This document shows positions 4,644 to 55,816 of a stretch of DNA of 64,000 bases, in pieces. Every line of letters starts with the position of its first letter. Position 1 is the stretch's first letter. This stretch comes from a bacterium. GTDB lineage: Bacteria > Patescibacteriota > Minisyncoccia > UBA6257 > GWB1-50-10. The DNA is taken from the NCBI GenBank assembly GCA_021814545.1, contig JAKAID010000001.1, positions 107,910-171,909 on the forward strand, in the 5' to 3' direction. The notes below the pieces were generated by a model. The model did not search any database. It worked only from the letters and a program-made list of their open reading frames with translations, and was not told the DNA's origin. Position numbers and translations under genes: made by a program.

Positions 4644-4644
4644 A

Positions 4645-5517
4645 CTATTCGGTATATGTTGCTTTGTGCACGTGGTGGTCGGGTACCAATGCGCCGTCTT
4701 TCAGCGTTATTATTTCATCGGCTTTTTCCGCAATGTCTTTGTCGTGGGTCACCACCACGAGCGTCTTACTTTGGGTCCGATTCAGCCTAATGAGAGAATC
4801 AAGGAGCATATTGCCGGTTTTCGAATCAAGGTTGCCCGTTGGCTCGTCGCCGAAGATGATGGCGGGGTCGTTCGCCAAGGCGCGGATAAGCGCTACGCGT
4901 TGTTGCTCGCCGCCGGAAAGTTCTGTGGGGTGGTGCATGAGCCGTTCGCCGAGGCCCATTTCAGCAAATCGCTTCCGCGTGTGTTCCATGCGTTCGCCGT
5001 GCGCGTCTCGCGCAAAAATAAGCGGTATTGTCGCGTTCTCGTAGGCATTGAGCCACGGGATAAGGTTATATTGCTGGAACACGAAGCCGAACACGGTCGA
5101 GCGCAAGGATGCCGTTTCTTCTTCGGACATCGTTGATGTGTCTACTCCGCGCACGAATACTTTCCCCTTCGTCGGTTTATCGAGAAGGCCCATGATGTTT
5201 AAGAGTGTGCTTTTCCCCGAGCCGCTCGGGCCGATAATAGAAACAAAATCGCCCTCCCAAATGTGCACATCAACGTCGTGTAAGATGCGCGTTTCAAGCC
5301 TCCCCGTGGTAAACGACTTGTACACGCCATCAAGATGAATGAACGGCGTTCCTAAATATTTTTTCGGATTTTTCTTGAAACGCTCAAGGCAGCCCTCTCC
5401 GCAGAAGTGATACTCCTTCCCTTCGTGCGCATAGGGAAGCGCCTGCGGGAATGTCTGAAGGTGCATCCCGCACACCAGGTCTATCTTTTTTGAGATGCGT
5501 TCGTGTTCAGCGTGCAT
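4645..5517 (-). CDS. ABC transporter ATP-binding protein (MacB/LolD-type) with N-terminal YHS/TRASH-like Cys motif
   Basis: N-terminal CGMH...YHFCGEGCLERF (YHS-like metal-binding signature), then Walker [10 protein letters not shown], signature LSGGEQQRVALIRAL and Walker [13 protein letters not shown]. Confidence 0.85.
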   Translation of the reverse strand: MHAEHERISKKIDLVCGMHLQTFPQALPYAHEGKEYHFCGEGCLERFKKNPKKYLGTPFIHLDGVYKSFTTGRLETRILHDVDVHIWEGDFVSIIGPSGSGKSTLLNIMGLLDKPTKGKVFVRGVDTSTMSEEETASLRSTVFGFVFQQYNLIPWLNAYENATIPLIFARDAHGERMEHTRKRFAEMGLGERLMHHPTELSGGEQQRVALIRALANDPAIIFGDEPTGNLDSKTGNMLLDSLIRLNRTQSKTLVVVTHDKDIAEKADEIITLKDGALVPDHHVHKATYTE

Positions 5518-5526
5518 TGCGCGCGG

Positions 5527-8190: not shown

Positions 8191-8445
8191 TTAGGCCTTC
8201 CCGCGGTAGCGGCGGAAGAACTTGCCCTCCATGGGCCTCGTCTCGCCCTTCACGTCGAGCATGATGTGCTGCTTGTAGGGCAGCCCCGCCGCGAGGGGGA
8301 TGTTCTCGACGGCGCAGACGAGGAAAGGCCCCTCGCTGCCGAGCTGCTTCTTCAGCTGCCAGAGCTTCTTCGCGTCCATGCTGTTCGGGTCAAGCTCCAC
8401 GAGCGTGTGATTCGTGAACTGCTTCATGCGCAGCTCTTCGGACAT
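8191..8445 (-). CDS. hypothetical small protein, very high GC3 (compositionally atypical)
   Basis: ORF with strong SD (GGGAGG 8 nt upstream of ATG at 8445). Codon third positions are almost all G/C, unlike neighbouring genes. No recognisable domain. Confidence 0.45.
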   Translation of the reverse strand: MSEELRMKQFTNHTLVELDPNSMDAKKLWQLKKQLGSEGPFLVCAVENIPLAAGLPYKQHIMLDVKGETRPMEGKFFRRYRGKA

Positions 8446-8503
8446 TCCCCTGCCTCCCTTTTGGGTCAAGTGTGTTAATGCAGCTGTTCACCAGCCTAAA
8501 AAA

Positions 8504-9493: not shown

Positions 9494-10834
9494 TTACACC
9501 GCGCGAAGCCCGCGTATCTTCGCGGCAAGCTCTTTCCGCTTTACCTCTTCTTGGGTGCGTTTTTCCATGTCCTTTACGATAACGACCTTCTTCTCGCGTT
9601 CGGGTGAACCCATAATAAGCACGATGGGAATTTCCGTAGAAACCGCATACGAGAGCTGTGCCTTGAGGTTGCGTTCGTCTCCCGCGTAAAGTTCTGCGCG
9701 TATATTTTGCGTACGGAGCTCGTGAACGATTTCTAAGAGGTCTCTTGTGCACGACTCATCAATGTTGAGCGCCATCACCTCGGTTACCGTCTTTTTTCTT
9801 TTAATGAGCCCGAGCTGCTCCATTGCGGCAAAAAGACGATCGATGCCCACTGATGCCCCCACCGCGGGGATACTCATTCCGCCAAACCGTTCCACGAGAT
9901 TGTCGTACCTTCCTCCAGAAAACACGCTGCCGATATTAGGAAGCCCCGTAAGCACGGTCTCGAATATCGTGCCCGTGTAGTAGCTTAAGCCGCGCGCGAC
10001 CGAGGGGTCGATGGCCCAAGCGGTTTCTGGCACGCCAAGACGCGCTACGTACTCTGTAACTTCCTTCAATTCGTTCACTCCCTGTTCGGCGGAAGCTATT
10101 CCCTTCGTTAGCTTTTCGATTTCTTCGAGGGTTTCTTTTGCACTATGTTTTTTTACGCCCACAAAATGCTTTATCTTTCCGACCGCTTCGTCATCAAGGA
10201 ATGCGCCCTTCTCGCTCTTCAGTTCTTTCGCCACCTCGTCCCAGGAGAGTTTGTCGAGCTTGTCCAGCGCGCGGAGCACCGGCTCAATTTTCCATGTATC
10301 GAACCCCGCATATTCGGGGAGGCCATTCAGTATCTTTCGGTTGTTCACGCGAATGAGAAAACCGGAGATGCCAAGCTCATTCATCACCGCGTTCATGAGC
10401 GCAATTATCTCTGCGTCCGCAATACGCGAGCGCGCGCCCACGATATCCGCATCGCACTGGAGAAATTCCCGGTAACGCCCGGCTTGCGGCCGCTCGCCGC
10501 GCCATACCTTGCCGCATTCATATCGCTTGAACGGACGTTTTATCCCGATTATATTCGCTGCGACTGCGCGGGCAAGAGGCACCGTGAGGTCGAATCGAAG
10601 CGAGAGCTCGTTCTCGTCGCCCCCTTGGGACGCAACGCCATATATCTGCTTTTTGAAATGCGGGTCGCCGCCGGTCAGTACATCGGTACGTTCCACGTTC
10701 GCCGTATCAAGCGGCGCAAATCCGTAGCGCTCGAAGACGCGCCGTACGGTATCAATAAGTGCCTGGCGCGGGACCATATCTTCTGGAAGATAATCCCGGA
10801 ATCCTCCCGGGAGTTTCGGCTCGATGTGTGCCAT
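9494..10834 (-). CDS. hisS: histidyl-tRNA synthetase
   Basis: MAHIEPKLPGGFRDYLPED start, class II motifs, HisRS-specific motifs and C-terminal anticodon-binding domain. ORF-track start at 10888 trimmed to the conserved N-terminus. Confidence 0.9.
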   Translation of the reverse strand: MAHIEPKLPGGFRDYLPEDMVPRQALIDTVRRVFERYGFAPLDTANVERTDVLTGGDPHFKKQIYGVASQGGDENELSLRFDLTVPLARAVAANIIGIKRPFKRYECGKVWRGERPQAGRYREFLQCDADIVGARSRIADAEIIALMNAVMNELGISGFLIRVNNRKILNGLPEYAGFDTWKIEPVLRALDKLDKLSWDEVAKELKSEKGAFLDDEAVGKIKHFVGVKKHSAKETLEEIEKLTKGIASAEQGVNELKEVTEYVARLGVPETAWAIDPSVARGLSYYTGTIFETVLTGLPNIGSVFSGGRYDNLVERFGGMSIPAVGASVGIDRLFAAMEQLGLIKRKKTVTEVMALNIDESCTRDLLEIVHELRTQNIRAELYAGDERNLKAQLSYAVSTEIPIVLIMGSPEREKKVVIVKDMEKRTQEEVKRKELAAKIRGLRAV

Positions 10835-10879
10835 ATCTATAAGTATGCAACATTGAATATATTTTTTGAAGTACAAAAA

Positions 10880-10898
10880 CCCGCACATTATGTGCGGG
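10880..10898 (-). terminator. intrinsic terminator after the CDP-alcohol phosphatidyltransferase gene (palindrome CCCGCACA-TTA-TGTGCGGG then T-run on minus strand)
   Basis: Seen in sequence. Confidence 0.55.
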
Positions 10899-10906
10899 TC
10901 TTCCCT

Positions 10907-11617
10907 TCAGCGCTTCGCGATATCCGCAGTCTTGCGAATGGCGCTTGCGAGCGCGAACGGCGTTGCGAACATGAAGAATGTAGAGGCGAGCCCCACGAAG
11001 TTCAACGTGAGGAAACTCATGCCGAACACTTCGAGCGTGAACTTAGTTTTGCCATAAATGTTCGCGGTAAGCTTCGTTTCGCGCCTCATCTTCCCCCTGT
11101 GTATCGCGTACACCGCCGCGATGACGATGACGAGGAGCCATGCCTCTATCGTGAGAAGGAGCGCAATGGCCGGCCAATGCAACCGACCGATGTCCGGGAG
11201 CACGATGAACATGAGCGCAAACTTGTCACAGATGGGGTCCAAAATTTCACCGAAGCGGGTGTGGCCGTCGAGCAGCGCCCACGCGCCATCGAGCTTGTCC
11301 GTGAGCATCGCGACCGCAAAAACGGTGGCGACTATCCAGGTTGGCACGCCATAGAGCCGCATGGGCATGATGATGAGTGCGAGGATCGGCCGCAACACCG
11401 AGAGAAGGTTCGGCACGGTGACCACCTCTTCCCCCGCAATCCTGAAATTCAGGATGCGCGCAATACGTCTTGCGCGCACAGAATCTCGCCGCGCCTTGTG
11501 ATACTGCATCCACGCCCTCACCCGCGGCACGATGCCTGCAAGCCGGGTGTTCACGGCAGCATTCACGCCGTTGTAGACGCGCGTAAGCGCGCTCTCAAGC
11601 TCCAACACTATTGCCAT
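10907..11617 (-). CDS. CDP-alcohol phosphatidyltransferase (PgsA-like)
   Basis: D-G-x2-A-R-x8-G-x3-D-x3-D motif (DKLDGAWALLDGHTRFGEILDPICDKFA), multiple TM helices. ORF-track 5' extension to 11752 rejected because it runs through tRNA-Gly. Confidence 0.8.
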   Translation of the reverse strand: MAIVLELESALTRVYNGVNAAVNTRLAGIVPRVRAWMQYHKARRDSVRARRIARILNFRIAGEEVVTVPNLLSVLRPILALIIMPMRLYGVPTWIVATVFAVAMLTDKLDGAWALLDGHTRFGEILDPICDKFALMFIVLPDIGRLHWPAIALLLTIEAWLLVIVIAAVYAIHRGKMRRETKLTANIYGKTKFTLEVFGMSFLTLNFVGLASTFFMFATPFALASAIRKTADIAKR

Positions 11618-11766: not shown

Positions 11767-12048
11767 CTATGGCGTTGTGCTCGCAGTTTCAGGGACGACG
11801 ATTATCATCTGCTCGCCGTCAGCCTTGTAATTAAAGCGCGCCTTTGAGACCTTAAGCAGGTTCGCAGGATTTTTGTAATACTCGATATCCCGCTTGAGGC
11901 CGTCATTCTCATCGCTCAGTTTTTTAACCGCCGCCGAAAGCTCTCCTATTTCAGCGACTGCCCCATTCCGTTGCTCGAGCAGAGTATACCCCGTCACCCC
12001 AAGCAGCGCAACGAGTACAAGGATAATGGCCCATCTCTGAATATTCAT
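11767..12048 (-). CDS. septum formation initiator FtsB/DivIC-like protein (TM plus coiled coil)
   Basis: N-terminal TM (WAIILVLVALLGVTGY), coiled coil, and YYKNP..LE..AR motif typical of the FtsB family. Confidence 0.55.
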   Translation of the reverse strand: MNIQRWAIILVLVALLGVTGYTLLEQRNGAVAEIGELSAAVKKLSDENDGLKRDIEYYKNPANLLKVSKARFNYKADGEQMIIVVPETASTTP

Positions 12049-40560: not shown

Positions 40561-40656
40561 CACTCTTGGCTCACTACGCCACATTGACAATGTGCTATTT
40601 TTTTGCTATTTTATTTTACGAACCTTAACAACCTATCGCTATACAAGGAGACGAGA

Positions 40657-41826
40657 ATGCGACTCGTGAATCTGAAGGTGGCGGCGGTGGCGCTTGCGTG
40701 TACTGCCCTGTCGGCGCGTGCCGACGAGGGAATGACGTTCAAGTTCGGCTACTCGCCGAACGAGAAGTACTCCTGGGCATCCCCTCGGAGTGCCGTTGGC
40801 GCCTACGACGTGCTCGCGACGAGCATCGACCGCTACTTCGGCCACTCCCCGCTCGCGCGGGGTACCACGATGGTGCTCGATGAGTTCGTTGGGTTTCACC
40901 TCAGCCAATTCGGCCACGAGTACGGGGGCCACGCTGAAGCGTTCTACGAGACAACGGGGCGGACCGCCTCGGTGACGCTCGGGCTCTTCAACCAGAGCCA
41001 CACGGACGCCTGGATCGATGGTAACGACCGCGAGGCGCTCCGAAAGTTCTGCAATGAGGGCGGCAGGGTTATCCTCACCGTGGCAGGCCTCAACTACCAG
41101 ATGCACGTCGGCGAGCTTCTCTCGCGGCGTATGCTCGGCAAGGAGGTCTACGCGCGCGAGCATCTCATGAGGCTCACGAACGACCTCGCACTCCTCGCCT
41201 ACATGATTCCCACGGCGCGCCCGCACGGGAGCACGGCGGCGGCCAAGGGGGACCTCACGGACTTCATGGGCAGCGTGACCGGTCCGCAGCTCCACCGCGT
41301 GAACAGGCTCTACAACCAGCTCTACGCGGGTGCTGCCTGGCAGGCGCTCGGCTCGTGGGTCGACTTCTACGGTGCGGGCATCTACCTGCTCTACGGAGAC
41401 CGGCTCGTGATGCCGAGAAACTGGGTGAGGCCCGAGACCATCCTCACGCCCTACGGCGTGGAATATGGGCTTATGGCCTCATTCCTCGACATCCCGGGGC
41501 TCGGCGAGAGCGCGATGCACTTCTTCGTGGGCGGCGGCGAGAGCTTGAGCGCCGACTCGAAGAACATGCTCCGCATGAAGACCGAGCTCGACGGCTTCGT
41601 GCTTCCGAACATCGGCACCAAGGTCAGCCTTGGCGTCGAGTACTATCGGAACAGCGCGGAGGGGTTCGCCTTCCGCGCTGAGGCCATCCAGCCGCTCACG
41701 AAGCGCGTGGGTCTCGGCTTTGAGGCGCGGGTGAAGCCCTTCCGCGGGTTCAGCGCCGACTTCGTCACCCTGCCGAACCAGGCCTGGAGCGCGCGTTACA
41801 CCGTACTCCTCGCCGTCACCCCGTAG
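40657..41826 (+). CDS. hypothetical secreted protein, very high GC3 (compositionally atypical); signal peptide
   Basis: Strong SD (AAGGAG) 7 nt upstream. Signal peptide MRLVNLKVAAVALACTALSARA. The C-terminal third shows alternating hydrophobic beta-strand-like segments. ~66% GC versus ~57% in flanking genes. Confidence 0.6.
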   Translation: MRLVNLKVAAVALACTALSARADEGMTFKFGYSPNEKYSWASPRSAVGAYDVLATSIDRYFGHSPLARGTTMVLDEFVGFHLSQFGHEYGGHAEAFYETTGRTASVTLGLFNQSHTDAWIDGNDREALRKFCNEGGRVILTVAGLNYQMHVGELLSRRMLGKEVYAREHLMRLTNDLALLAYMIPTARPHGSTAAAKGDLTDFMGSVTGPQLHRVNRLYNQLYAGAAWQALGSWVDFYGAGIYLLYGDRLVMPRNWVRPETILTPYGVEYGLMASFLDIPGLGESAMHFFVGGGESLSADSKNMLRMKTELDGFVLPNIGTKVSLGVEYYRNSAEGFAFRAEAIQPLTKRVGLGFEARVKPFRGFSADFVTLPNQAWSARYTVLLAVTP

Positions 41827-42992: not shown

Positions 42993-43030
42993 GCGATTAG
43001 TGTTTATGCCTTATTCAGTATACCAAAAAA

Positions 43031-43279
43031 TCACGCCTTCCCGTGCTTTACCAGCTCGAGCTTCCTCTCCCTCTTCCAGCTCTTGATTTCCGCCTCCCGT
43101 TTTGATGCTTTTGAGCGGTTCTTGTGCTTTTCGGCGTAGAGAAGCTTCACAACCCTATGCGCACGGGTATATTTCGCGCCCTTCTTCGCGGCATGCTCTT
43201 CAAACCTGCGCGCCACATCGGTCGTGAGCCCTGTATAGATACTCCCGCCCTCGCATTCTATAAGATAGACGAAGTACAC
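43031..43279 (-). CDS. GIY-YIG nuclease-family small protein (UPF0213/YhbQ-like)
   Basis: MYFVYLIECEGGSIYTGLTTDVARRFEEH..R.WK GIY-YIG core. Confidence 0.8.
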   Translation of the reverse strand: MYFVYLIECEGGSIYTGLTTDVARRFEEHAAKKGAKYTRAHRVVKLLYAEKHKNRSKASKREAEIKSWKRERKLELVKHGKA

Positions 43280-43389
43280 TATTTAGATTTTAACAAAACC
43301 GGTTCGGCGACAGATTGAACTCACCTTGGGCCCGGCCGCCTCAATGGTTGTTATGCCTAGACAGTGAAAGGGATCGGTGATAAAATAGT

Positions 43390-44454
43390 ATGGTGAAAAC
43401 CTCACACAAGCTCCTGCTCCAAGACGCGCGAAATTTGATTGGAATCAAGTCCGAAAGCGTGGATCTTGTTGTTACGTCTCCGCCATACCCAATGATCCAA
43501 ATGTGGGATGCGGTTTTTTCAGAATTAAATCCAGCTATTGCCGCCGCGTTGAAAGAGGAAAATGGAAATTTGGCATTTGAGCTCATGCATAAGGAGCTCG
43601 ACAGCACATGGAGAGAAATTTTCCGTGTTTTAAAAGATGGCGGCATTGCCTGCATAAATATTGGAGATTCCACCCGAACAATCGGGGGGAAATTTCAATT
43701 GTTCCCAAACCATTCGCGCATTTCAAAATCTTGTTTTGAAATTGGCTTCCATTGTCTCCCTGAAATCTTATGGCGCAAACAGACAAACGCCCCTAATAAA
43801 TTCATGGGGTCGGGAATGCTGCCCGTAGGAGCCTACGTGACTTTGGAGCATGAGTATATTTTAGTTTTGCGCAAAAATGGAAAACGCTTGTTTAATACAG
43901 AAAATGAAAAGAATCTTCGGCAAGAAAGTGCCTTTTTTTGGGAGGAGAGGAATCAATGGTTCTCCGATGTATGGGCAGACGTCAAGGGAGTTTTTCAAAA
44001 GCAGCACCAAAATGAAACCGATCGAAGAAGTGCCGCGTATCCAATAGAAATACCCTATCGTTTAATAAATATGTTTTCTTTGAAAGGAGATGTGGTTCTC
44101 GACCCGTATCTTGGCACCGGCACAACAATGGCGGCAGCCGTAATCGCAGAAAGAAATAGCATCGGGCTTGAAATTGATAAAAAATTTGCGAATGTGATCG
44201 TCAATAAAATTAAGGATGTTCCGCAAAATTATAACGGAGCTGCCAAAAAGCGACTCGAGAAGCACTTAAAGTTCGTCCAGGAGAGACAGGAAGAGAAAGG
44301 AGTCTCCGTTTTCAAATACACGAATAAAAACTACAAGCTCCCGGTAATGACTCGGCAGGAAACCGAAATCTTTTTTAGAGAGCCCACGAAAGTCAATCAA
44401 AAAAAGGAGGCTAACACTTTTGAAGTTGAATACAAAGAGTTCCGGATTAAATAG
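43390..44454 (+). CDS. DNA methyltransferase, beta-class N4-cytosine/N6-adenine family (motif IV SPPY before motif I)
   Basis: DLVVTSPPYP (motif IV) near the N-terminus and VLDPYLGTGTTMAAA (motif I) near the C-terminus; ~38% GC versus ~57% flanks. Confidence 0.85.
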   Translation: MVKTSHKLLLQDARNLIGIKSESVDLVVTSPPYPMIQMWDAVFSELNPAIAAALKEENGNLAFELMHKELDSTWREIFRVLKDGGIACINIGDSTRTIGGKFQLFPNHSRISKSCFEIGFHCLPEILWRKQTNAPNKFMGSGMLPVGAYVTLEHEYILVLRKNGKRLFNTENEKNLRQESAFFWEERNQWFSDVWADVKGVFQKQHQNETDRRSAAYPIEIPYRLINMFSLKGDVVLDPYLGTGTTMAAAVIAERNSIGLEIDKKFANVIVNKIKDVPQNYNGAAKKRLEKHLKFVQERQEEKGVSVFKYTNKNYKLPVMTRQETEIFFREPTKVNQKKEANTFEVEYKEFRIK

Positions 44455-45042
44455 CTAAGAGTCAAACTCGATAACTATTCCATCCTTTTTCTTCTCGTAA
44501 TATACGATTCTGTAGTTAATGCTTTCAGGGAGCGCCGCCTTAGTCTTATAGGTTGTGGGCTTTATGCTGACCGGATCATTACCCACATATCCGTCTATCC
44601 CCCGCGATTCTTCTTCCGGAGTCGCGAGTCTGTAGTTTTCTCCAACGTCTTCTGCAATCCTTTTTATGATCGCCTCTTGGAATTTTAACCCCGCAAATGT
44701 TTTAACAATAACGAGATCGGTAACCCACTCTCTAATCATATCTTTGTTGATCTTCCCAATAGAGTCCTTCAATTTCTCAACCATATCGGAAATTTTTTCT
44801 ATTGCCCGTTCAATCCCATCGGGTTCTTTACCCTTGTACCACTTCTCCCAATTTTTGAGCCCCCCTCCCTTAAATTCTTTAATTAGCTCACTCAGCTGCC
44901 CAACAACCGATGGACGCGTACCTTGAGCATTCTGATTGGCCAAGTTCAGGATCTGCGTTGAATATTTCGGAAAAGAGGGGCTACCGCCCGACAAGAGCTG
45001 CGCAATTTCTTTGTTCGATATTTTGATTTTCTTTAAAGCCAT
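44455..45042 (-). CDS. candidate restriction endonuclease cognate to the adjacent methyltransferase (195 aa, family unassigned)
   Basis: Convergent and abutting tail-to-tail with the MTase (stop codons adjacent), same AT-rich composition, acidic/Lys-rich. No confidently recognised catalytic motif. Confidence 0.4.
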   Translation of the reverse strand: MALKKIKISNKEIAQLLSGGSPSFPKYSTQILNLANQNAQGTRPSVVGQLSELIKEFKGGGLKNWEKWYKGKEPDGIERAIEKISDMVEKLKDSIGKINKDMIREWVTDLVIVKTFAGLKFQEAIIKRIAEDVGENYRLATPEEESRGIDGYVGNDPVSIKPTTYKTKAALPESINYRIVYYEKKKDGIVIEFDS

Positions 45043-45158
45043 GGATTCGGGTCTGCGCCAATCGCTTTGCGTGTTTTCCCCTGGTTATATTTGTAGGTAA
45101 TTCTATCCCTGATATAACTTCCTGTAAAACAGTTTTTCTCGGGCCGGATTCTAACCGA

Positions 45159-45187
45159 TTGAAAAAAAGGCTGGGATGGGGTATAAT
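45159..45187 (+). promoter_or_regulatory. sigma70-like promoter for tRNA-Gln (TTGAAA-17-TATAAT)
   Basis: Near-consensus hexamers 10 nt upstream of the tRNA 5' end. Confidence 0.55.
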
Positions 45188-45197
45188 TGCTTTTAAT

Positions 45198-45268
45198 TGC
45201 GGGATCGTCTAATGGTAGGACGCCTGACTCTGAATCAGGTAATCTTGGTTCGAATCCAGGTCCCGCAG
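45198..45268 (+). tRNA. tRNA-Gln(CUG)
   Basis: Acceptor TGCGGGA/TCCCGCA, anticodon stem CCTGA/TCAGG with loop CTCTGAA, T-loop TTCGAAT, discriminator G; no encoded CCA. Confidence 0.85.
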
Positions 45269-45373
45269 CAAAAAACGGAAGCAACCGCCTCCCAGTTTCA
45301 CTCACTCCGCTTGACCATAGGACTGAGGACTCTGAATTCACTGCTTGGCGAAATTCACCCTCCCCAACTCAGA

Positions 45374-46150
45374 ATGAAACGAAAAGAATTAGTAAATCAA
45401 ACGGAAGGAGCGTATTTACGTAAGGATTATCTTGAGGCCTTTGTAATTCAAAGTGCATATATTGAGAGTATTTTAAGAGAATTTATAAGCAATAAATTCC
45501 ATCAGCATCTCTCTGATGGTCTTTGTCAGTCTTGTGAATTTATGAACGCAGTACGAAAAAAGGTTATTGGAATTTCATTGCACGGTCTGATTGAATTGCT
45601 ATACGAGGGTAAATATATCGACTCGGGACAGAAAGCAAAAATGCAAGTATACAAAAATAGACGAAATAATATTTTGCATGAATTGCTCAAACATATTTCT
45701 AATCCAACTTTTGAAAAAGAGCTTTCTGCCGCCTACGAAGCCGGTAAGGAAGTTTTAGATGATAAAAGGCTTAAATGGATCGAGGAATTAATTGACGCAA
45801 GAGAAGAACATAATATTCTTAATGGTAAAATTATTCAGGAATCGCTTACTGATTTCTCGATAATAAATAAATTTACCGCTATGGGATATAGTCTTATTCA
45901 AAAAGAAAATCCAGCGGATAATTTACACGAATATCACGTACTCGCAGTTAATGACTGGCTTCCACTCCTCCAAAAATATCTCAAAGAGGGATGGTTTGCA
46001 TATTTTTGGAATGAAACTAAATTAAAAATTGTATTTTCAAGTAAGATATTTGAAGTTGACCCCCATCGAGAAGAAACCTGGAAGTCGGCGATAGATTATG
46101 GCTTATCAAAGCAAATCCCTATAGAAATGCTTAAGTTTCCCATGAAATAG
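45374..46150 (+). CDS. hypothetical AT-rich protein with HEPN-like R-x4-H motif (candidate abortive-infection/RNase-type defense protein)
   Basis: ~31% GC. All-helical N-terminal ~110 aa ending in YKNRRNNILHELLKH (R-N-x3-H). Start trimmed to 45374 because the longer ORF runs through tRNA-Gln. Confidence 0.5.
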   Translation: MKRKELVNQTEGAYLRKDYLEAFVIQSAYIESILREFISNKFHQHLSDGLCQSCEFMNAVRKKVIGISLHGLIELLYEGKYIDSGQKAKMQVYKNRRNNILHELLKHISNPTFEKELSAAYEAGKEVLDDKRLKWIEELIDAREEHNILNGKIIQESLTDFSIINKFTAMGYSLIQKENPADNLHEYHVLAVNDWLPLLQKYLKEGWFAYFWNETKLKIVFSSKIFEVDPHREETWKSAIDYGLSKQIPIEMLKFPMK

Positions 46151-46173
46151 CCCGATATATTGCCCAAACAAAA

Positions 46174-46196
46174 ACACGCCATTATGGCGTGTTTTT
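46174..46196. terminator. bidirectional terminator (ACACGCC-ATTA-GGCGTGT plus T5, A5 upstream)
   Basis: Seen in sequence. Confidence 0.65.
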
Positions 46197-46214
46197 CGCT
46201 GCTTATGGAGCGCC

Positions 46215-48777: not shown

Positions 48778-48813
48778 AAAACCCGCGCTTTGGACGTATC
48801 CAAAACGCGGGAA
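48778..48813. terminator. terminator hairpin (CCCGCGcTTTGGA..TCCAAAaCGCGGG), A-run upstream (T-run for the minus-strand paralog gene)
   Basis: Seen in sequence. Confidence 0.5.
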
Positions 48814-48817
48814 TGAA

Positions 48818-49426
48818 TCAGATGTCCACCTCGACAAGGCGGTACACCGCGGCAGCCGTGTGGCTCATCCAGTCCGACTGGACCGGCGAATGCCCCATGA
48901 CCCACTTCGCGCCGTTCCACGCGAGGTAGCGCACGCACGGCGAGCCGTCCGCCATCCGGTAGAGCGTTCCCCAGAAGTAGATGAGCGGATAGCAGCCGTG
49001 CACCCGCTCTTTCCAGTTCTCCGGAATGAGCCCCTGGTTTCCGAGGAGGAAGTCGAGAACGTTCGCGTTCCAGGCGACGGTTCTTTTCATCTCCTCGAAG
49101 AGGCGGCTGCCGCTCACGAGACTTCCGCGGCGCTGCTCTTCCATCTGGAAGAGGCTTACCGCACGCGGGTCCCAAGCAAACACGCCTTCGCCGTCGTGCT
49201 TCATGAGCGTGAGGCCGCGCGGAACGAGAGGCCTTGCCCCGAGATCGATGACGGGGCCAGGCGCGCCGCGGAGCTTCTTGCGCACGACCTTCAGCAACAC
49301 CTCGAGCACCTGCGGATTGTCCGCAAGAATGTCGAGCTCTTCGGGGGTGAAGCCGACCGCCTCGGCAGCGAGGCACAGCTTGTGCGCTACGCCAAGCACG
49401 TAGAACTGCGAGCTTTTGCTTGCCAT
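48818..49426 (-). CDS. hypothetical protein, paralog A of a tandem pair, very high GC3
   Basis: Shares ..NANVLDFLLGNQ.(F/L)IPE...G..LCFWGTLY....VRYL.W.G..W.. with the downstream-encoded paralog B; no known domain recognised. Confidence 0.6.
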   Translation of the reverse strand: MASKSSQFYVLGVAHKLCLAAEAVGFTPEELDILADNPQVLEVLLKVVRKKLRGAPGPVIDLGARPLVPRGLTLMKHDGEGVFAWDPRAVSLFQMEEQRRGSLVSGSRLFEEMKRTVAWNANVLDFLLGNQGLIPENWKERVHGCYPLIYFWGTLYRMADGSPCVRYLAWNGAKWVMGHSPVQSDWMSHTAAAVYRLVEVDI

Positions 49427-49453
49427 GCCCTGCTCCTTTCCTTCAATGTGAAT

Positions 49454-49468
49454 GTCCGCATTGCGGAC
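49454..49468. repeat. perfect 15-bp palindrome GTCCGCA-T-TGCGGAC ~30 nt upstream of paralog A start (candidate operator)
   Basis: Seen in sequence. Confidence 0.4.
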
Positions 49469-49540
49469 ATGTGAAATATCTGGCTTTACCGTACCACCAT
49501 TTTGTTAGGTTGTCCAGAGCAATAAAATTGCCAATAAAAT

Positions 49541-49596
49541 CCCGTAGTAGAGCGAACTCACTACGGGATAAAAAGCCCGCGCTGATACGCGCGGGC
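49541..49596 (-). terminator. two tandem hairpins (CCCGTAGT..ACTACGGG; GCCCGCGC-tgatac-GCGCGGGC) each followed by a T-rich run on the minus strand; terminators after paralog B
   Basis: Seen in sequence. Confidence 0.55.
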
Positions 49597-49602
49597 ATGT
49601 TG

Positions 49603-50190
49603 CTACTTGTCGATGCTCATGATGCGGATGGCGGCATAGAACTCGCTCATCCACACCTCGTCGATGCACCGGTAGAAGGAATCCCACCGATTGCCGCTCC
49701 AGAAGAGGTAGCGCACCACGATGCGGTTGCTCGCCGTCTTGTAGAGCGTGCCCCAGAAGCAGAGGCCGAGCATCGCACCGCGCGGACCCGCCTTCAGCGA
49801 CTCCGGGATGAACCGCTGGTTTCCGAGAAGGAAGTCGAGAACGTTCGCGTTCAAGAGCACGTGCGTCCGCAGCTCCGCGAACACCTCGCGCCCCGTCACG
49901 GTGACGCCCCGCTCCTGCCCCTCCGTGAGAAGGGGCGCTATTGCGTCCTTCCCCCAGTGGAACATGCCGCCGGGCTCGTGCTTCACGACCGCGAGCTTGC
50001 CGGGGGCAGCCGGAGCCCTGGTGCAGTCCACGATGCGCCTCTTCTCCTCCTCGGGGTTGCCCTCGAGAGCGAACTTCACGCTCTCCCTGAGCTTCCTCGC
50101 GGCAGCCTCGGCCGTCTCGCCGACGTTCTTTCTGAACGCGCCGAGCGCCCTGTCGAGCGCAAGGTCCACTTCCTTCGCGACTTCACTCAT
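49603..50190 (-). CDS. hypothetical protein, paralog B of a tandem pair, very high GC3
   Basis: See paralog A; the shared C-terminal ~90 aa has conserved Trp/Tyr positions. Confidence 0.6.
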   Translation of the reverse strand: MSEVAKEVDLALDRALGAFRKNVGETAEAAARKLRESVKFALEGNPEEEKRRIVDCTRAPAAPGKLAVVKHEPGGMFHWGKDAIAPLLTEGQERGVTVTGREVFAELRTHVLLNANVLDFLLGNQRFIPESLKAGPRGAMLGLCFWGTLYKTASNRIVVRYLFWSGNRWDSFYRCIDEVWMSEFYAAIRIMSIDK

Positions 50191-50264
50191 TTTCTTCCTG
50201 CCTTTCTTGGCTTGAGGAACTGCTCTTAATTTAACACTTTATAAGGCTGGTGTCAATTTATCCG

Positions 50265-50681
50265 CTATCGCTGCGGCGGCACCGCCGGCCTCAACTGAAT
50301 GGCCTGCGCAGTAATACTCCCGTCAGCATTCGCGGTACCTCCTACGGTCACCTGCTTCCCCGCTGCAAGGTCATCAGCGGTGCCGTCAACGGACTTTGAA
50401 ACTTTCGTTGAGGCGGAGAAAAATACGAAACGCGTGCTTCCGTCCTGCATCTTCACGGTAATACTCTTATCGTCTTTGCTCTGTATCTCACCTGTAACGA
50501 ATCCGCCGCTCATGAAATTCCCACCTCTCCGCCCCGCGCCGCCCATGCGTTGGCCGTTCCTATCAAAAACGTTTCCGCTCACGGATGAACTGCCATACTG
50601 CATACCACCCCAAAAGAGCGCCACACCCACGACCACCGCACCCGCCGCATACATCGCAACCGTTTTGTTCAATTTTTTCAT
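50265..50681 (-). CDS. small secreted/membrane-anchored beta-rich protein with Gly-rich linker (DUF5666-like?)
   Basis: N-terminal TM/signal, Gly-rich low complexity (GGAGRRGGNFMSGG), then a beta-rich ~70-aa domain ending ..GSITAQAIQLRP; paralogous to 54277-54780. Confidence 0.5.
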   Translation of the reverse strand: MKKLNKTVAMYAAGAVVVGVALFWGGMQYGSSSVSGNVFDRNGQRMGGAGRRGGNFMSGGFVTGEIQSKDDKSITVKMQDGSTRFVFFSASTKVSKSVDGTADDLAAGKQVTVGGTANADGSITAQAIQLRPAVPPQR

Positions 50682-50690
50682 ATATTTTGG

Positions 50691-51914
50691 TTATTCGTAT
50701 CGTAGTGCCTCTATCGGATTCAAACCCGCCGCGCGCCGCGCGGGATAATATCCGAACACGATGCCAATGCCCGCCGACACGCCGAACGCGAGCAGGACCG
50801 ACGACCAAGAAATGCTTGTGGCAATTCCCGCAAATGCGGTAACCGCCCACGCAATGGCCCACCCGAGGAGCACTCCGATCACGCCGCCCGTGAACGTGAG
50901 CATCACTGACTCGGCAAGGAATTGCGTACTAATGTCCCTGCGTTTTGCCCCTATCGCCTTGCGCAACCCTATCTCGCGCGTGCGCTCCGTAACGGTCGTG
51001 AGCATCATATTCATGATGCCGATACCGCCCACAAGGAGTGAAATACCCGCGATGGCGCCGAGCAGCATCGTAAACACTCCCGTGATAGAGGAGGCGGTCG
51101 CCACCACATCGGATTGGTTCAAAATATTAAAGTCTGCCTGGCTCGGGTCCGTTATCTTGTGACGTGCAAGAAGGAGGTCGCGCACCTGCTGCTGAATAAT
51201 GGCCATCGACTGCGTATCCTGCGCCGCAATACTTATCGCCGTTACGTACGTGTCGCCCGCAAGATAGCGCTGCGCGGTGGAGAGCGGTACGAATACCATG
51301 TCGTCCTGGCTTCCGAAACCGCTCGTGCCCTTCGCCGCCGTAATGCCGATAACCTTAAACTCTACCTTGTTGATTTTGATGGTCTCACCTACCGCATCCG
51401 CGTCCGCACCAAAGAGGTCATCGCGTGCGGTGGGGCCGAGCACCGCCACGCGCGCCATGCTGCGCACCTGGGAATCTGAAATGAAGGAACCGTTCGCGAT
51501 TTCAATGTTCCTTACGTCGGGGTATGCCGGCACGGTGCCGACAACCTGCGTGTTCGTATTCGTTCCTTTCGCCGTGATTTGATACCGCCGCGATATCTCC
51601 GGTGCCACGCCTTTTGCGAGTGAAACTTCTTTCGTGATGGCGTCCGCATCCTCCTGCTTCAGCGATTGCGCGGTGCCGCGCCCCTGGCTTACCTGCACGC
51701 CGGGACCGCGCTGCGCCCCCGGCGAAACAATGAGCAGGTTAGAGCCGATGGATTTAATGTTCGCCTCGATAGTACTCTGCGCACCCTGGCCTATCGAGAC
51801 CATGGCAATGACCGAGCCGATGCCGATAACAATGCCGAGCATGGTGAGCCCCGTGCGCACCTTGTTCACCGTAAGCGATGAATATGTTTCTTCCGCGATA
51901 TCAAGAATGGTCAT
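50691..51914 (-). CDS. ABC transporter permease, FtsX/MacB-like
   Basis: N-terminal TM, extracytoplasmic MacB_PCD-like domain, C-terminal FtsX TM bundle (..GISLLVGGIGIMNMMLTTVTERTREIGLRKAIGA..). Confidence 0.85.
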   Translation of the reverse strand: MTILDIAEETYSSLTVNKVRTGLTMLGIVIGIGSVIAMVSIGQGAQSTIEANIKSIGSNLLIVSPGAQRGPGVQVSQGRGTAQSLKQEDADAITKEVSLAKGVAPEISRRYQITAKGTNTNTQVVGTVPAYPDVRNIEIANGSFISDSQVRSMARVAVLGPTARDDLFGADADAVGETIKINKVEFKVIGITAAKGTSGFGSQDDMVFVPLSTAQRYLAGDTYVTAISIAAQDTQSMAIIQQQVRDLLLARHKITDPSQADFNILNQSDVVATASSITGVFTMLLGAIAGISLLVGGIGIMNMMLTTVTERTREIGLRKAIGAKRRDISTQFLAESVMLTFTGGVIGVLLGWAIAWAVTAFAGIATSISWSSVLLAFGVSAGIGIVFGYYPARRAAGLNPIEALRYE

Positions 51915-52627
51915 TCGTGTGCGTGATGATTTGCGGAACGCCTGTGGTGATTCTTGCCGTCCTCTACGATATATCCGTCTTTAATATGAATAATGCGGTC
52001 AGCGTGCTCGGCGACGTATTGTTCGTGCGTAATGAGCACGATGGTGTGCGCGTGGTTTTCATTAAGCTTCTCGAATGTGCCGAGTACTATCTCGCCCGTT
52101 CGCGTATCCAAATTCCCCGTAGGCTCATCCGCGAGCACGATACGGGGATTATTTACGAGCGACCGCGCGATGGCCACGCGCTGCATCTGCCCCCCCGAGA
52201 GCTGATTCGAGAGATGATTCCAGCGGCTCTCCTCAAGCCCAGATGCCGCGAGTGCGCGCCCCGCGCGCGCCCCGCGCTCTGCTTTCGGCACGCCCGCATA
52301 GAGGAGCGGCAGCATGACGTTGCGCAACACGGTCGCACGCGGGAGCAGGTTGAACGCCTGGAAAACAAAACCGATCTTTCCCTCGCGCACCCCGGCAAGT
52401 TCGTCGTCCGAAAGTTTCGACACGTCGCGCCCATCGAGCTTGTACGTGCCCGAGGTCGGGCTGTCGAGCGCGCCCAAAATATGCATCAGGGTAGATTTTC
52501 CGGAACCGGAGGGGCCCATAATAGCAACGTATTCACCGTCCTCGATGGTGAACGAAACTCCTTTCAATACCTCCGTTGCTACCCCTCCGTTCGTATAGGT
52601 CTTCGTAATATTCTTGCACTCGATCAT
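51911..52627 (-). CDS. ABC transporter ATP-binding protein (MacB/LolD-type)
   Basis: Walker [11 protein letters not shown]-loop, signature [15 protein letters not shown], Walker [14 protein letters not shown]-loop; C-terminal His-rich tail. Start trimmed to [11 protein letters not shown]. Confidence 0.9.
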
Positions 52628-52634
52628 ATGCGCA

Positions 52635-54251
52635 TTACCGACCCACCCCGCCCAGTCCGGGCAATCGCAACCCGCCACCCTGGGATTGCGAGGTGGAGTT
52701 CGTGGTCGCAATGACGCTCCGCACTACCACCACGTCGCCCTCGTTCAGCCCTTTGGTTATTTCGGTCATGGTGTCGTTCGATGCACCCACCTCGACCGGC
52801 CGCCGCTCGGTTGCCACGGTGCCGCTCATTACCCCTGTCGAAGTGCCCGCGCTTGGCGCTCCGCCGCTCACTATTTCAACGTAGCGTTCGTTCCCCTGCG
52901 TTTTGACGGCCGCGCTCGGCACCAAGACCACGTCCTGGCGCACATCGGTGATGATAGACGCGGATACGCTCATGCCGGGGCGCACGCGTGCATCGTCACC
53001 CTGAAACCCTATCTTCACGTTATAAGTAACTACGCCCTGCGTGACCGTGCCAATGGTGTCTATCTCGATAACTTTTCCGGTGAGGCTCAACCCGTCAATG
53101 GCCTCGAACGTGAGTGTCGCTTTTTGGCCCAGCGCCACCCTTGAAACATCAACCTCGTTCAATGAAACACTCGCGTATCTGCTCGGCGAGATGATAGTGG
53201 CGAATATGGCCGAGGGTGAAACAGTGTCGCCCACTTTCGGAGAAATGCTCGCGATAGTTCCGGAGAATGGCGCACGAATGACATAATTCGCGATAGCCTC
53301 GTTCGCGTCCGCAAGCGCATTTTCGCGCTGTCTTACCGCAAGCTCCTGCGATGCGATGTTGTAGGGTGCGTTCGTGATGGAGGCGATATCAGAAGCAAGC
53401 GATGCGATGTGCGGATTCACCGCTGCGGTGTAGTTCGAAAGGTCTGATTTATGCTTCGTGACCAGTGCGGCGTATGGCGACGGTATAGTACGGCCGCGCT
53501 GCGTGTAATAATCATTCACATAGTCGATAATGTTCGTCGTATTTTTAATAGCATCCGCGGTTTTTGTCGCCACATCCACCGTCTCATTCGCAAAGGCGAT
53601 TATCACGTCCTGTGCGTCGGTGCGGCTCAAGGTGTGGTATTGTGCGAACGCAGCATCGTACGCGCTCCTCGCGCTCTGATAGCTTGCCTCGGCGCTGTTC
53701 ACCAGGACCGTAATGCCATCTCTGTCCTGCGGGTCGATAAGATTCAGATACGACACGATGACCTTGTCGTGGAGCGCGTCATTCAACCCCGTCATTACCG
53801 TGGGAAGATCGAGGAACGTGTTCGAGAGCTCGTTGTAGGTATTAGAAACTAACGTATCAACATTCGCCCCTGACTCTTTGAGGATGGTGAGCTGCAACTT
53901 TGCCGATTCCACATTCACTGCCGCATCACGTATTGCCTTCCCCGCATCTTCGGTATCAAGCCTACCCAATATTTGCCCCGCCGCTACCCGCTGCCCATTC
54001 AAGACGGGAATGGCAATAATGCGGCCAGAAGCCTCCGGCTTCACGTCGATTTGGTTGAGGGCTGAAACCTGCCCCGAGCCGGATACCGAAACTACAAGCG
54101 TTCCTTTCTCTGCGACCGCAGTAACGTATTGGGCAGAGGCGGTGCTCTTCGTATACTTCGAGTATCCGTAATAGCCTCCGCCTGCGATTGCCAAAAGTGC
54201 GATGGCCGCGGCGACTTTATGCGCGCCGACCCAGTTCAAAAATGGTTTCAT
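52635..54251 (-). CDS. HlyD/MacA-family periplasmic adaptor (membrane fusion protein)
   Basis: N-terminal TM, lipoyl-like beta segments, long helical hairpin, C-terminal beta-barrel/MP domain; Gly-rich tail (GGGLRLPGLGGVGR). Confidence 0.8.
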   Translation of the reverse strand: MKPFLNWVGAHKVAAAIALLAIAGGGYYGYSKYTKSTASAQYVTAVAEKGTLVVSVSGSGQVSALNQIDVKPEASGRIIAIPVLNGQRVAAGQILGRLDTEDAGKAIRDAAVNVESAKLQLTILKESGANVDTLVSNTYNELSNTFLDLPTVMTGLNDALHDKVIVSYLNLIDPQDRDGITVLVNSAEASYQSARSAYDAAFAQYHTLSRTDAQDVIIAFANETVDVATKTADAIKNTTNIIDYVNDYYTQRGRTIPSPYAALVTKHKSDLSNYTAAVNPHIASLASDIASITNAPYNIASQELAVRQRENALADANEAIANYVIRAPFSGTIASISPKVGDTVSPSAIFATIISPSRYASVSLNEVDVSRVALGQKATLTFEAIDGLSLTGKVIEIDTIGTVTQGVVTYNVKIGFQGDDARVRPGMSVSASIITDVRQDVVLVPSAAVKTQGNERYVEIVSGGAPSAGTSTGVMSGTVATERRPVEVGASNDTMTEITKGLNEGDVVVVRSVIATTNSTSQSQGGGLRLPGLGGVGR

Positions 54252-54276
54252 GCGTGTTCGTAATGCAGACCGTTCC

Positions 54277-54780
54277 CTATTGCGCGAACGACGGATACCC
54301 TTGCATCATGCTCGGGAGCACCCGAATAAGCCGCGCCTCAATAACGCCGCTCGCGTCCGGCGAGCCGATTACCATCACTGACATTCCCGCCACAAGCTCT
54401 CCCGCAGACAACGAGCTGTGCATATAGCGAATTGCGGTCGAGCTCGTGACTTCTACTATTTTTTCCGCGCCATCGCGGTCCTGCACCACGAACGTAGGCA
54501 TTGCCACTCTCAATACCGGACCCGCAACTCCGTGCCCCGCAAGAAAATCCTGTGTGGGAAGAAAACCGCCCATCATGCCGCCGCCGTTCATCATACCGCC
54601 GCCGAAACGAGGGCCCATGTACGTGCGATACACGTTCTCACCCCAGCGATACGAATAGCCCGCCTTGCTATACCCCACGAACTCGCCCGCCTTGAACGCG
54701 ATGAGTAACACCACCACCGCACCCGCTATCCAGAGAACCGCTTTCCACGCCGATGATTCCAATACTTGTTTTATTGTCAT
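54277..54780 (-). CDS. small secreted/membrane-anchored beta-rich protein with Gly/Met-rich linker (DUF5666-like?)
   Basis: N-terminal TM, GGGMMNGGGMMGG low-complexity, then a beta-rich domain ending ..GVIEARLIRVLP; paralogous to 50265-50681. Confidence 0.5.
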   Translation of the reverse strand: MTIKQVLESSAWKAVLWIAGAVVVLLIAFKAGEFVGYSKAGYSYRWGENVYRTYMGPRFGGGMMNGGGMMGGFLPTQDFLAGHGVAGPVLRVAMPTFVVQDRDGAEKIVEVTSSTAIRYMHSSLSAGELVAGMSVMVIGSPDASGVIEARLIRVLPSMMQGYPSFAQ

Positions 54781-54791
54781 AATTATTATTT

Positions 54792-55208
54792 TTATAGTGC
54801 AAACGACGACCTACGCGACAGCGCCCGAATATCGCGCGCAAGGTACCGCGTTGAAAGCATGAGCACGAATATGCTCGCCGCGACACCCGCAACCCCGAAT
54901 ACGGGCAGCGCCTCTGCAAGAGAGATAAGGAAGTCCTGCCAATAGACCGCGACAATACCCGCGTCGCTTATGAGGAGCGATAAGAACTGCACAAAGCCCG
55001 ACTGCGTAAATTCTGCGTACAGCTCCCGCAACGCAGGGACCAGCGCGACAAGCGAGAGCAACGCCGCTGTGCCCAACACGCCAATGCGCGCGTAGATAAC
55101 CCCCCGGCGCTCCTCAACCTTCACCTGTGCCAATATGCGTGCAAAAAGCTCGCGGGAAGGTTCTTTTCTCGCGATGCGCTGCAATGCGTTATTGAGGTCA
55201 TTCTGCAT
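54792..55208 (-). CDS. putative anti-sigma factor/membrane protein paired with the ECF sigma
   Basis: Immediately downstream of the ECF sigma gene with the same orientation; has TM segments; no conserved anti-sigma motif verified. Confidence 0.4.
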   Translation of the reverse strand: MQNDLNNALQRIARKEPSRELFARILAQVKVEERRGVIYARIGVLGTAALLSLVALVPALRELYAEFTQSGFVQFLSLLISDAGIVAVYWQDFLISLAEALPVFGVAGVAASIFVLMLSTRYLARDIRALSRRSSFAL

Positions 55209-55255
55209 AGGCTCCTACTATTACTACAATCGCCTATGGCGTTTTGGTGCATCTC

Positions 55256-55816
55256 TTATTTACGGAGCTTTCCCCGTAGGGCGATGAGCGCCCGCCGGTA
55301 CCTGCTTTTTACCGTATCCAGGGACACCTCGCTCATTTCCGCTATCTCGCGAAAAGAGAGCTCTTCGGTGTGGTGGAGCACAATAACCGCCTGCTGCTCG
55401 GGCGGCAGCTCCCGCATCGCTTCCTCTACCCGCGCCACAAGGTCCCGTTCCTCAAAAACCTCCTCAAGGAGCGGCGCTTCATCGGGAATCGTTTCTTCAA
55501 AATCTGCACCGCCTCCCTCGCGCGCGATATCGCCAAAGAGCACGGGCTTCTTCTTTTTCAACCAATTGAGCGAAGCATTCTTGGCAATAGAAAAGAGCCA
55601 CGGCTTGAACGCGCGGCTGCGGTCGAATGCGCGTAGCCCTTTCCACGCATTCATGAACGCGTCTTGAGTGATATCTTCAGCATCCCCCTCGTTCCTTGCG
55701 TAGAGATACACGAAGTTATAGACCGCCTTCATGTAGCGCGCCACAAGCTCCCCGAATGCGCGTGTGTCGCCCTCGAGGTGCCGCGCAACCAATTCATTGT
55801 CAGAAATACCGCTCAT
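55256..55816 (-). CDS. ECF-type RNA polymerase sigma-70 factor
   Basis: Region 2 (..YMKAVYNFVYLYARNEGDAEDITQDAFMNAWKGL..) and region 4 HTH (..LSFREIAEMSEVSLDTVKSRYRRAL..). Confidence 0.85.
   Translation of the reverse strand: MSGISDNELVARHLEGDTRAFGELVARYMKAVYNFVYLYARNEGDAEDITQDAFMNAWKGLRAFDRSRAFKPWLFSIAKNASLNWLKKKKPVLFGDIAREGGGADFEETIPDEAPLLEEVFEERDLVARVEEAMRELPPEQQAVIVLHHTEELSFREIAEMSEVSLDTVKSRYRRALIALRGKLRK

Follow-up and report, generated by a model that had tools for sequence, protein, structure and literature searches.

What are the two short genes that stand side by side just downstream of an exporter array in this Patescibacteria genome, and what does their unusual base composition tell about their origin? 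The window, i.e. the whole stretch of 64,000 nucleotides analysed here, is CPR-like in its content, and its housekeeping and transporter proteins best match related MAG loci at 50-70% identity. Within it the two genes, named A and B below, lie 3' of an array of sigma, MFP, ABC, MacB and DUF5666 genes and are co-directional with it. The preliminary description of the locus had noted their position next to an exporter array; it saw in them a tandem pair of paralogs of no assignable family and considered them either as cargo or effectors of the exporter or as acquired foreign genes. Our analysis confirms what was observed there, the size of one palindrome excepted; the interpretation is largely superseded, the main point being that both genes belong to a family of target proteins of diversity-generating retroelements (DGRs).

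49603 to 50190, minus strand: gene A, an ORF of 195 aa in which a helical segment at the N-terminus precedes the ~140-aa CPR DGR-target module (profile match 315 bits)
48818 to 49426, minus strand: gene B, an ORF of 202 aa with the same architecture as A (profile match 350 bits)

The two products are indeed paralogous: BLASTP aligns them over 162 aa at 38% identity (E=1e-34), and in a rough neighbour-joining (NJ) tree of 80 family members they are mutual sisters on long branches, which fits an old local duplication. Along B, the identity rises from 23% in the first 57 residues to 40% both in the core and in the last 30 residues preceding the tail. Both proteins contain the previously described C-terminal block NANVLDFLLGNQ..IPE...FWGTLY...VRYL.W.G..W. 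At the DNA level A aligns with B (76-77% identity) only in the part that lies ~91-250 nt ahead of the stop codon, and blastn gives no alignment between the last 90 nt of the two genes.

The flanks of the genes hold the following signals:

50228 to 50256, minus strand: promoter-like site upstream of A, TTGACA, 17 nt, TG-TAAATT (10/12 matches in a consensus scan, plus an extended -10 TG)
49575 to 49596, minus strand: intrinsic-terminator-like hairpin 7 nt past the stop codon of A, with 8 G-C pairs, GCCCGCGC-GTATCA-GCGCGGGC, then TTTTTAT
49539 to 49569, minus strand: second hairpin after A, with a 10-bp stem, ATCCCGTAGT, 11 nt, ACTACGGGAT, then TTTTATTGG
49452 to 49470, no strand assigned: palindrome ATGTCCGCA-T-TGCGGACAT, 25 nt upstream of the ATG of B
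48782 to 48811, minus strand: terminator-like hairpin 7 nt past the stop codon of B, with a 13-bp stem and the loop TACG, then TTTTTATTTA, and with no CTT-rich element

The promoter-like site of A sits in the 74-nt gap that follows the DUF5666 gene, and a ribosome-binding site, AAGGAG, precedes the ATG of B by 6 nt. Two tandem terminator-type hairpins had been reported between A and B, and both are found there (49596..49575 and 49569..49539), each with a T-run. The palindrome, reported as a perfect one of 15 bp, does exist, but its size is different: it has 9-bp arms around one central base. It occurs only once in the window, where the chance expectation is 0.01, and may represent an operator or a 5'-UTR hairpin.

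Searches of curated collections agree with the statement that no known family can be assigned, as neither A nor B has a match in Pfam or NCBIfam, and PDB searches, both with a single sequence and with a profile, returned nothing meaningful. A word-index search with B alone, which found three proteins (B, A and one other), had suggested a rare family; this was overturned by the exhaustive search with a three-sequence HMM built from A, B and P0003. That search, of the kind proposed in the preliminary description, recovered a very large family of 2,960 cluster representatives (50%-identity clusters) at E<=1e-3 and 1,982 at E<=1e-10, almost exclusively from CPR/Patescibacteria. Among species-representative genomes it is found at 158 loci, nearly all in CPR MAGs (Saccharibacteria, Paceibacteria, Nomurabacteria, Kaiserbacteria, Falkowbacteria and others). 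The motifs IDCDA..PF, NANVLDYLL, IPE.WK, FWGTIY and VRYL.W are common to the family consensus. All matches are named "hypothetical protein" in their sources and none has a Pfam domain; a Pfam scan of 132 members gave only weak ScsC_N-like matches to the N-terminal helices of 23 of them (best E=4.8e-4), which we regard as uninformative. Apart from sequences of the same population, no relative above ~40% identity to the pair was found among 15 billion proteins.

Some proteins of the family contain two to four copies of the ~140-aa module (P0004 of 481 aa, P0005 of 804 aa, P0006-P0009 and P0012), and each copy ends in a tail resembling a variable region (VR). Taken together with the tandem genes, these fused relatives show that the module duplicates readily, across genes or within them. 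In the fused proteins the copies are joined in one gene, whereas A and B are separate genes split by two terminator-like hairpins.

It is the surroundings of the relatives that reveal what kind of family this is. At ~22 related loci a copy of the 3'-terminal ~120 nt of the family gene lies 300-450 nt downstream, with 80-93% identity, and the mismatches fall almost only at adenines of the copy (23/23 in locus L012, 19/19 in L064, 19/19 in L021; in L059 the same pattern is seen directly). A downstream copy with adenine-only differences is the defining signature of a DGR. In 11 loci the copy, i.e. the template repeat (TR), appears as a short Asn-rich pseudo-ORF directly downstream. In 15 loci an ORF of ~340-370 aa follows two to three genes downstream of the family gene and encodes a reverse transcriptase (RT; RVT_1, E=1.7e-24), and between the two an opposite-strand ORF is bAvd-like at E=1.6e-7, which is below the Pfam cut-off. 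The adenine-confined mismatches, the bAvd-like gene and the RT together identify the family as one of DGR targets and link it to DGR hypermutation. The same profile of A, B and P0003 picks up the family genes of L012, L040, L059 and other loci with adenine-specific VR/TR pairs, and this homology places A and B within the CPR DGR target-protein family.

In most relatives the stop codon is also directly followed by a nested hairpin rich in CTT. With a minimum of four CTT within 60 nt of the stop codon as a criterion, we find this element in 18/23 genes with a TR and in 26/40 genes which lack a local TR and are followed by 3 kb or more of sequence, against a background of 2.7%. Rfam has no family for it and returns only sub-threshold sRNA matches. 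A functional DGR target would have a recognition element (IMH plus inverted repeat) at or beyond the 3' end of the VR; from its distribution we infer that the CTT-rich hairpin is a candidate for this element in the present family.

Do A and B carry these marks themselves? The stretches that correspond to the variable regions of the relatives, aligned to 19 translated TRs, are:

49627 to 49716, minus strand: stretch of A, 30 codons, VRYLFWSGNRWDSFYRCIDEVWMSEFYAAI
48845 to 48934, minus strand: stretch of B, 30 codons, VRYLAWNGAKWVMGHSPVQSDWMSHTAAAV

No RT is seen in the window either by tblastn with the RT of L012 or by a search of its ORFs for the YxDD motif. An HMM of family-linked RTs, run in six frames over 72.6 kb, i.e. 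the window and 8.6 kb past its left end (L089), gives nothing at E<=10. There is no match in the window to the Avd of L045 (tblastn), and blastn of both 3' ends against the window returns only the conserved upstream block of the respective paralog, with mismatches at all four bases; neither 3' end recurs there. After the stop codon, A has one CTT and B none, only a plain GC hairpin and a T-run being present.

We also looked for a footprint of past mutagenesis by aligning 80 C-termini with the 19 translated TRs, which defined 9 columns of TR-Asn (AAY) codons and 19 scaffold columns:

Genes with a TR: 96% of variable-column codons end in C or T; 88% of scaffold residues equal the TR
Genes with no TR and with the CTT element: 96% of variable-column codons end in C or T; 79% of scaffold residues equal the TR
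Genes with neither TR nor CTT element: 86% of variable-column codons end in C or T; 70% of scaffold residues equal the TR
A plus B: 7/18 variable-column codons end in C or T; 20/38 scaffold residues (53%) equal the TR

Taken singly, A has 4/9 such codons and keeps 9/19 scaffold residues, and B has 3/9 and keeps 11/19. The value of 7/18 for both is close to the one predicted from their own C3+T3 composition, and some of their scaffold changes (W to M/S, W to P/C, P to A/Y) affect positions beyond the reach of adenine mutagenesis. The tails show no difference between the contigs recovered from several samples, which is weak evidence, as these are consensus assemblies of near-clonal populations that are 99.2-100% identical overall; the only protein variant among them, V68I in B of P0272, lies outside the tail. 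Every DGR hallmark that was sought is absent at A and B within the inspected 72.6 kb. As judged from these sequence features, the two genes would be either long retired from DGR service or members of a branch that was never serviced.

From the evidence above we suggest, with a probability of about 0.72, that A and B are old local duplicates within a very large, Patescibacteria-specific family of DGR targets, which a DGR has ceased to serve or never served, and which are likely binders of fixed specificity. In the relatives, the template repeat lying 300-450 nt downstream would be reverse-transcribed by the error-prone RT with its bAvd-like partner, and the cDNA copy would then replace the variable region and randomise its AAY (Asn) codons; for A and B such servicing would have been lost or never have existed.

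The second half of this alternative, that A and B represent an ancestral branch which was never diversified and that DGRs were recruited only later to the main branch, takes a minor part of the same probability and is in our opinion unlikely, though it survives better than the other explanations. It agrees with the position of the pair near the midpoint root, together with the TR-free long-branch members L049, L081, L038, L076, L069 and L072, among which four (L049, L081, L076, L072) have a plain hairpin after the stop codon and two (L038, L069) have no GC-rich terminator hairpin. It agrees also with the codon footprint being wholly absent in A and B. On the other hand, their 30-residue tails have exactly the length and register of variable regions, most TR-free members still carry the footprint, and the grouping of long branches is likely a tree artefact, since an NJ tree cannot separate an early branch from attraction after the loss of the retroelement.

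It is improbable that A and B are still active targets of a remote DGR, with its RT and TR outside the inspected 72.6 kb. Such an arrangement is not without precedent: DGRs with targets more than 100 kb distant have been documented (PMC5758913), and many genes of the present family that have no TR within 10 kb keep both the CTT element and a 96% footprint, which shows that non-adjacent servicing, or a very recent loss, is common in the family. But A and B have no CTT element, their footprint is only the 7/18 given above, and they differ from the TRs in scaffold residues at non-adenine positions. In locus L029 a tandem pair of targets matches one single TR and the two are 84% identical, whereas the tails of A and B have no DNA similarity to each other; the constancy of each tail in all recovered contigs speaks against ongoing diversification as well.

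The kind of system is already known, while the family itself is unnamed and functionally uncharacterised. The closest known proteins are the DGR targets of Patescibacteria/CPR, from the 'clade 2' DGRs of Roux et al. 2021 (PMC8144416) and from the CPR set with the unknown VR classes UVR1-6 of Wu et al. 2018 (PMC5758913). A and B are clearly homologous, with E values to 1e-70 against the family profile, to proteins that have proven VR/TR pairs, a bAvd-like gene and an RT, and agree with the CPR targets of these two papers in a C-terminal VR, a length of ~190 aa and the lack of a transmembrane (TM) segment, signal peptide or recognisable domain. In the latter study most CPR variable regions were left in the unknown classes UVR1-6 or ungrouped (PMC5758913). 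Unlike those targets, A and B are not accompanied by a TR, RT or Avd in their vicinity, lack both the element flanking the VR and the codon footprint, and have a decayed scaffold. They resemble remote targets of the Treponema and Legionella type in being family copies located away from any RT/TR cassette, but true remote targets differ from their TR at adenines only and keep the recognition sequences, and A and B do neither.

Likeness to two DGR variable proteins of C-type-lectin fold, Mtd (Bordetella phage BPP-1) and TvpA (Treponema denticola), is of a more general nature: a compact alpha/beta module presents its variable residues at the C-terminus, and the element order predicted for the A/B family (beta, alpha, alpha, beta, beta, beta, beta) would be CTLD-like. 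There is, however, no sequence match and no significant structural match to them, the FGE-sulfatase/DUF1566 Pfam signal is absent in the family, and Mtd and TvpA are phage-tail or surface proteins, whereas the A/B family appears cytoplasmic.

The structure prediction that had been proposed for the pair yielded a usable model and no significant fold match. AF2 reached a pLDDT of 87.5 for B with a 123-sequence alignment (with a 3-sequence alignment it was 57, too poor for use), and in the model the helices of the N-terminus are followed by beta strands, by two more helices (106-114 and 121-129) and, at the C-terminus, by five strands on which FWGT, VRYL and the tail are located. A Foldseek search of PDB and BFVD yielded no significant match. 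The best one in PDB was 8oks, at a non-significant E=0.25, and about 12 of the top 50 were C-type lectin domains. The 8oks entry is a trimeric CLec domain for which the only trimer-matching homologue reported is Mtd (PMC10769870), and the uncharacterised VR domains of CPR are expected to be new C-Lec variants (PMC8144416); the share of C-type lectins among our matches agrees with this expectation and is not a proof of it. In the model, the order of secondary-structure elements in the module resembles that of a C-type lectin.

Since the last ~30-40 residues correspond to the stretch that is rewritten by the DGR in the relatives, by analogy they most likely form a ligand-contacting surface. No TM segment and no credible signal peptide is seen in A or B. 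It would be logical to suggest that they are most likely soluble and cytoplasmic and serve in binding, the C-terminal surface of each setting a specificity that is fixed and differs between the two.

The high GC3 of the pair, which had been read as a possible mark of foreign genes, is real: it amounts to 0.90 in A and 0.83 in B against 0.62-0.70 in the exporter genes and other neighbours, and lies 2.4-3.2 sd above the mean of the 71 ORFs of the window (0.63, sd 0.09); total GC is 0.64-0.65 against 0.55 for the window. Two other ORFs of the window are equally extreme in GC3 (8191..8469 at 0.91 and 40603..41826 at 0.86). The proposed check of homologs for phyletic range and GC3 gave a CPR-wide family in which the excess is general: in other genomes the family genes exceed their own neighbours in 62/69 cases (mean 0.63 vs 0.46, Wilcoxon p=5.6e-12), i.e. 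in 90% of members, with genomes that range over 33-62% GC. The family GC3 follows that of the host (r=0.58). The excess is mostly in C3 (+0.12), with A3 and T3 both depleted, and is seen in the first and the second half of the gene alike; neither the RT and Avd genes of the cassettes concerned nor the ribosomal-protein and EF-Tu genes of the same loci share it. The preliminary description had named, as a refutation of its reading, that the paralogs be widespread native genes of this lineage with normal codon usage. This holds by half: widespread and native they are, but their codon usage is not normal.

The excess being family-wide, the high GC3 of A and B does not show a foreign origin. A recent horizontal acquisition of the pair from a GC-richer donor, which would account for its composition and would be in line with the documented horizontal movement of DGR cassettes (PMC5758913), seems to us improbable: the GC3 excess belongs to the family and tracks the host, no close relative of the pair exists among the 15 billion proteins searched, the same population aside, and A and B are sisters, so that any transfer would be older than their divergence to 38% identity, with ample time for amelioration.

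As to the cause of the excess, several candidates were rejected. High expression does not explain it, given that the ribosomal-protein and EF-Tu genes stand at background GC3 in the same loci, and it is therefore not an ordinary expression-linked codon bias. A foreign origin of whole DGR cassettes is contradicted by their RT and Avd genes having no excess, and avoidance of adenine on the coding strand alone by the depletion of T3. We may suggest, as a quite speculative and rather doubtful idea, that the synonymous G+C excess is a lasting by-product of the DGR, caused perhaps by GC-biased repair or gene conversion in repeated cDNA homing or by selection on the target mRNA or DNA, and that A and B are 'fossil' targets which retained this signature after the retroelement was lost; if this were true, retired DGR targets would be recognisable, and perhaps datable, by composition alone.

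There remains the exporter. The 80 related loci have no conserved set of neighbouring gene families: only in 3 of ~80 does a MacB-like gene occur within 5 kb of the family gene, at offsets +7, -3 and -6, and in L001 the family gene adjoins FtsZ. In the window itself another MacB-like array (3438-7095) stands without any family gene next to it. With a terminator on each gene and a promoter-like site at least for A, the pair appears to lie outside the MacAB-like exporter operon. A role of A and B as cargo, effector or accessory subunit of the ECF-sigma/MFP/ABC/MacB-like exporter next to them is very unlikely, in view of the non-conserved linkage, the promoter-like site of A, the terminators on both genes and the missing export signals, even though the genes follow the array immediately and in the same direction, the gap from the DUF5666 gene to A revealed no terminator, and loci L037 and L074 also have exporter genes less than 10 kb from the family gene.

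Two genes of unknown nature are now members of one of the largest uncharacterised families of Patescibacteria, one that has no Pfam or NCBIfam model and is firmly linked with DGR hypermutation. A and B give a clear case of members that do without a DGR and can be useful for questions of what ligands are bound by apparently cytoplasmic variable proteins and how DGR targets are retired or fixed. Taken alone, the pair of this window is ordinary; the by-products of the analysis at the family level are more interesting leads, and the family-wide GC3 excess, the CTT-rich element after the variable regions and the test for the C/T-ending (NNY) codon footprint may become aids for the annotation of DGRs in CPR genomes.

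According to our analysis, a working counterpart of A and B, the window's tandem paralogs, is found at the related locus L029 (9974-13403), where two family genes in tandem, one at 9974-10543 and the other at 10795-11454, match one and the same template repeat (TR, 11790-11912) and differ from it solely at adenines, at 15 and 18 sites, and where an Avd-like gene on the opposite strand and then the RT lie beyond the TR. The same order, namely target with its variable region (VR), TR, opposite-strand bAvd-like gene and RT, is shared by 12 CPR cassettes (L012, L021, L025, L028, L029, L040, L044, L045, L059, L064, L067 and L073), in which the start of the RT ORF is often overlapped by the Avd-like ORF. 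Clear TRs whose mismatches fall at adenines alone are also seen in four further loci, L009, L017, L055 and L052. In the roughly 10 kb of sequence downstream at these loci, phmmer with the L012 RT as query found no RT at E<=1e-5; the enzyme may have diverged, may lie far from the locus or may have been lost. The family also includes fused proteins (P0004, 481 aa; P0005, 804 aa; P0006, P0007, P0008, P0009 and P0012) built of two to four copies of a module of about 140 aa, each copy ending in its own VR-like tail.

A synonymous GC excess is a family-wide property, with GC3 of 0.63 vs 0.46 in neighbours (p=5.6e-12; 69 family genes from L005-L084 and the window), reaching 0.78 vs 0.29 in L031 and 0.89 vs 0.35 in L052, and it is absent from RT, Avd, ribosomal-protein and EF-Tu genes. 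Two further ORFs of the window match A and B in GC3 extremity, neither with a Pfam match:

8191-8469, minus strand, ORF for a 92-aa protein, GC3 0.91
40603-41826, plus strand, ORF for a protein of about 390 aa, GC3 0.86, with a hydrophobic, signal-like N-terminal segment

The window also carries two separate exporter arrays, the second flanked on both sides by small DUF5666-like proteins (54277-54780 and 50265-50681), and a similar sigma/DUF5666/MFP arrangement occurs in L074, a related locus:

3438-7095, minus strand, MFP/ABC/MacB-like exporter array 1
50265-55816, minus strand, MFP/ABC/MacB-like exporter array 2
55256-55816, ECF sigma factor preceding array 2
54792-55208, possible anti-sigma gene preceding array 2

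Positions 43000-46200 form a low-GC island (0.38-0.46 vs 0.55), which looks like a mobile restriction-modification island adjoining a tRNA gene and also holds a 317-aa ORF without assigned function (GC3 0.34):

43390-44454, N6/N4 DNA methyltransferase
44455-45042, MjaI-like restriction enzyme gene
45198-45269, tRNA-Gln

L002, a contig from another sample, differs from the window by 86 mismatches and 13 gaps overall. Its methyltransferase is called as two separate ORFs, of 127 aa and 47 aa, and not as one of 354 aa.

Directly 3' of the stop codon, most family genes of the related loci carry a conserved-looking CTT-rich element of three stacked stems of 4-5 bp with CTT/TTT internal loops between them, for instance GACC-TTTC-GTTCC-TTT-GACC-loop-GGTC-CTT-GGAAC-TT-GGTC, and no Rfam family matches it. 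Examples are:

L059:10489-10545, CTT element
L041:4609-4665, CTT element
L021:3722-3780, CTT element
L045:10430-10488, CTT element

The element stands 3' of the VR and not 3' of the TR, and among 40 family genes lacking a local TR, 26 carry it as well. We suggest that it may be the hairpin or cruciform by which CPR DGRs recognise their targets, and that it may serve as a marker of non-adjacent DGR targets.
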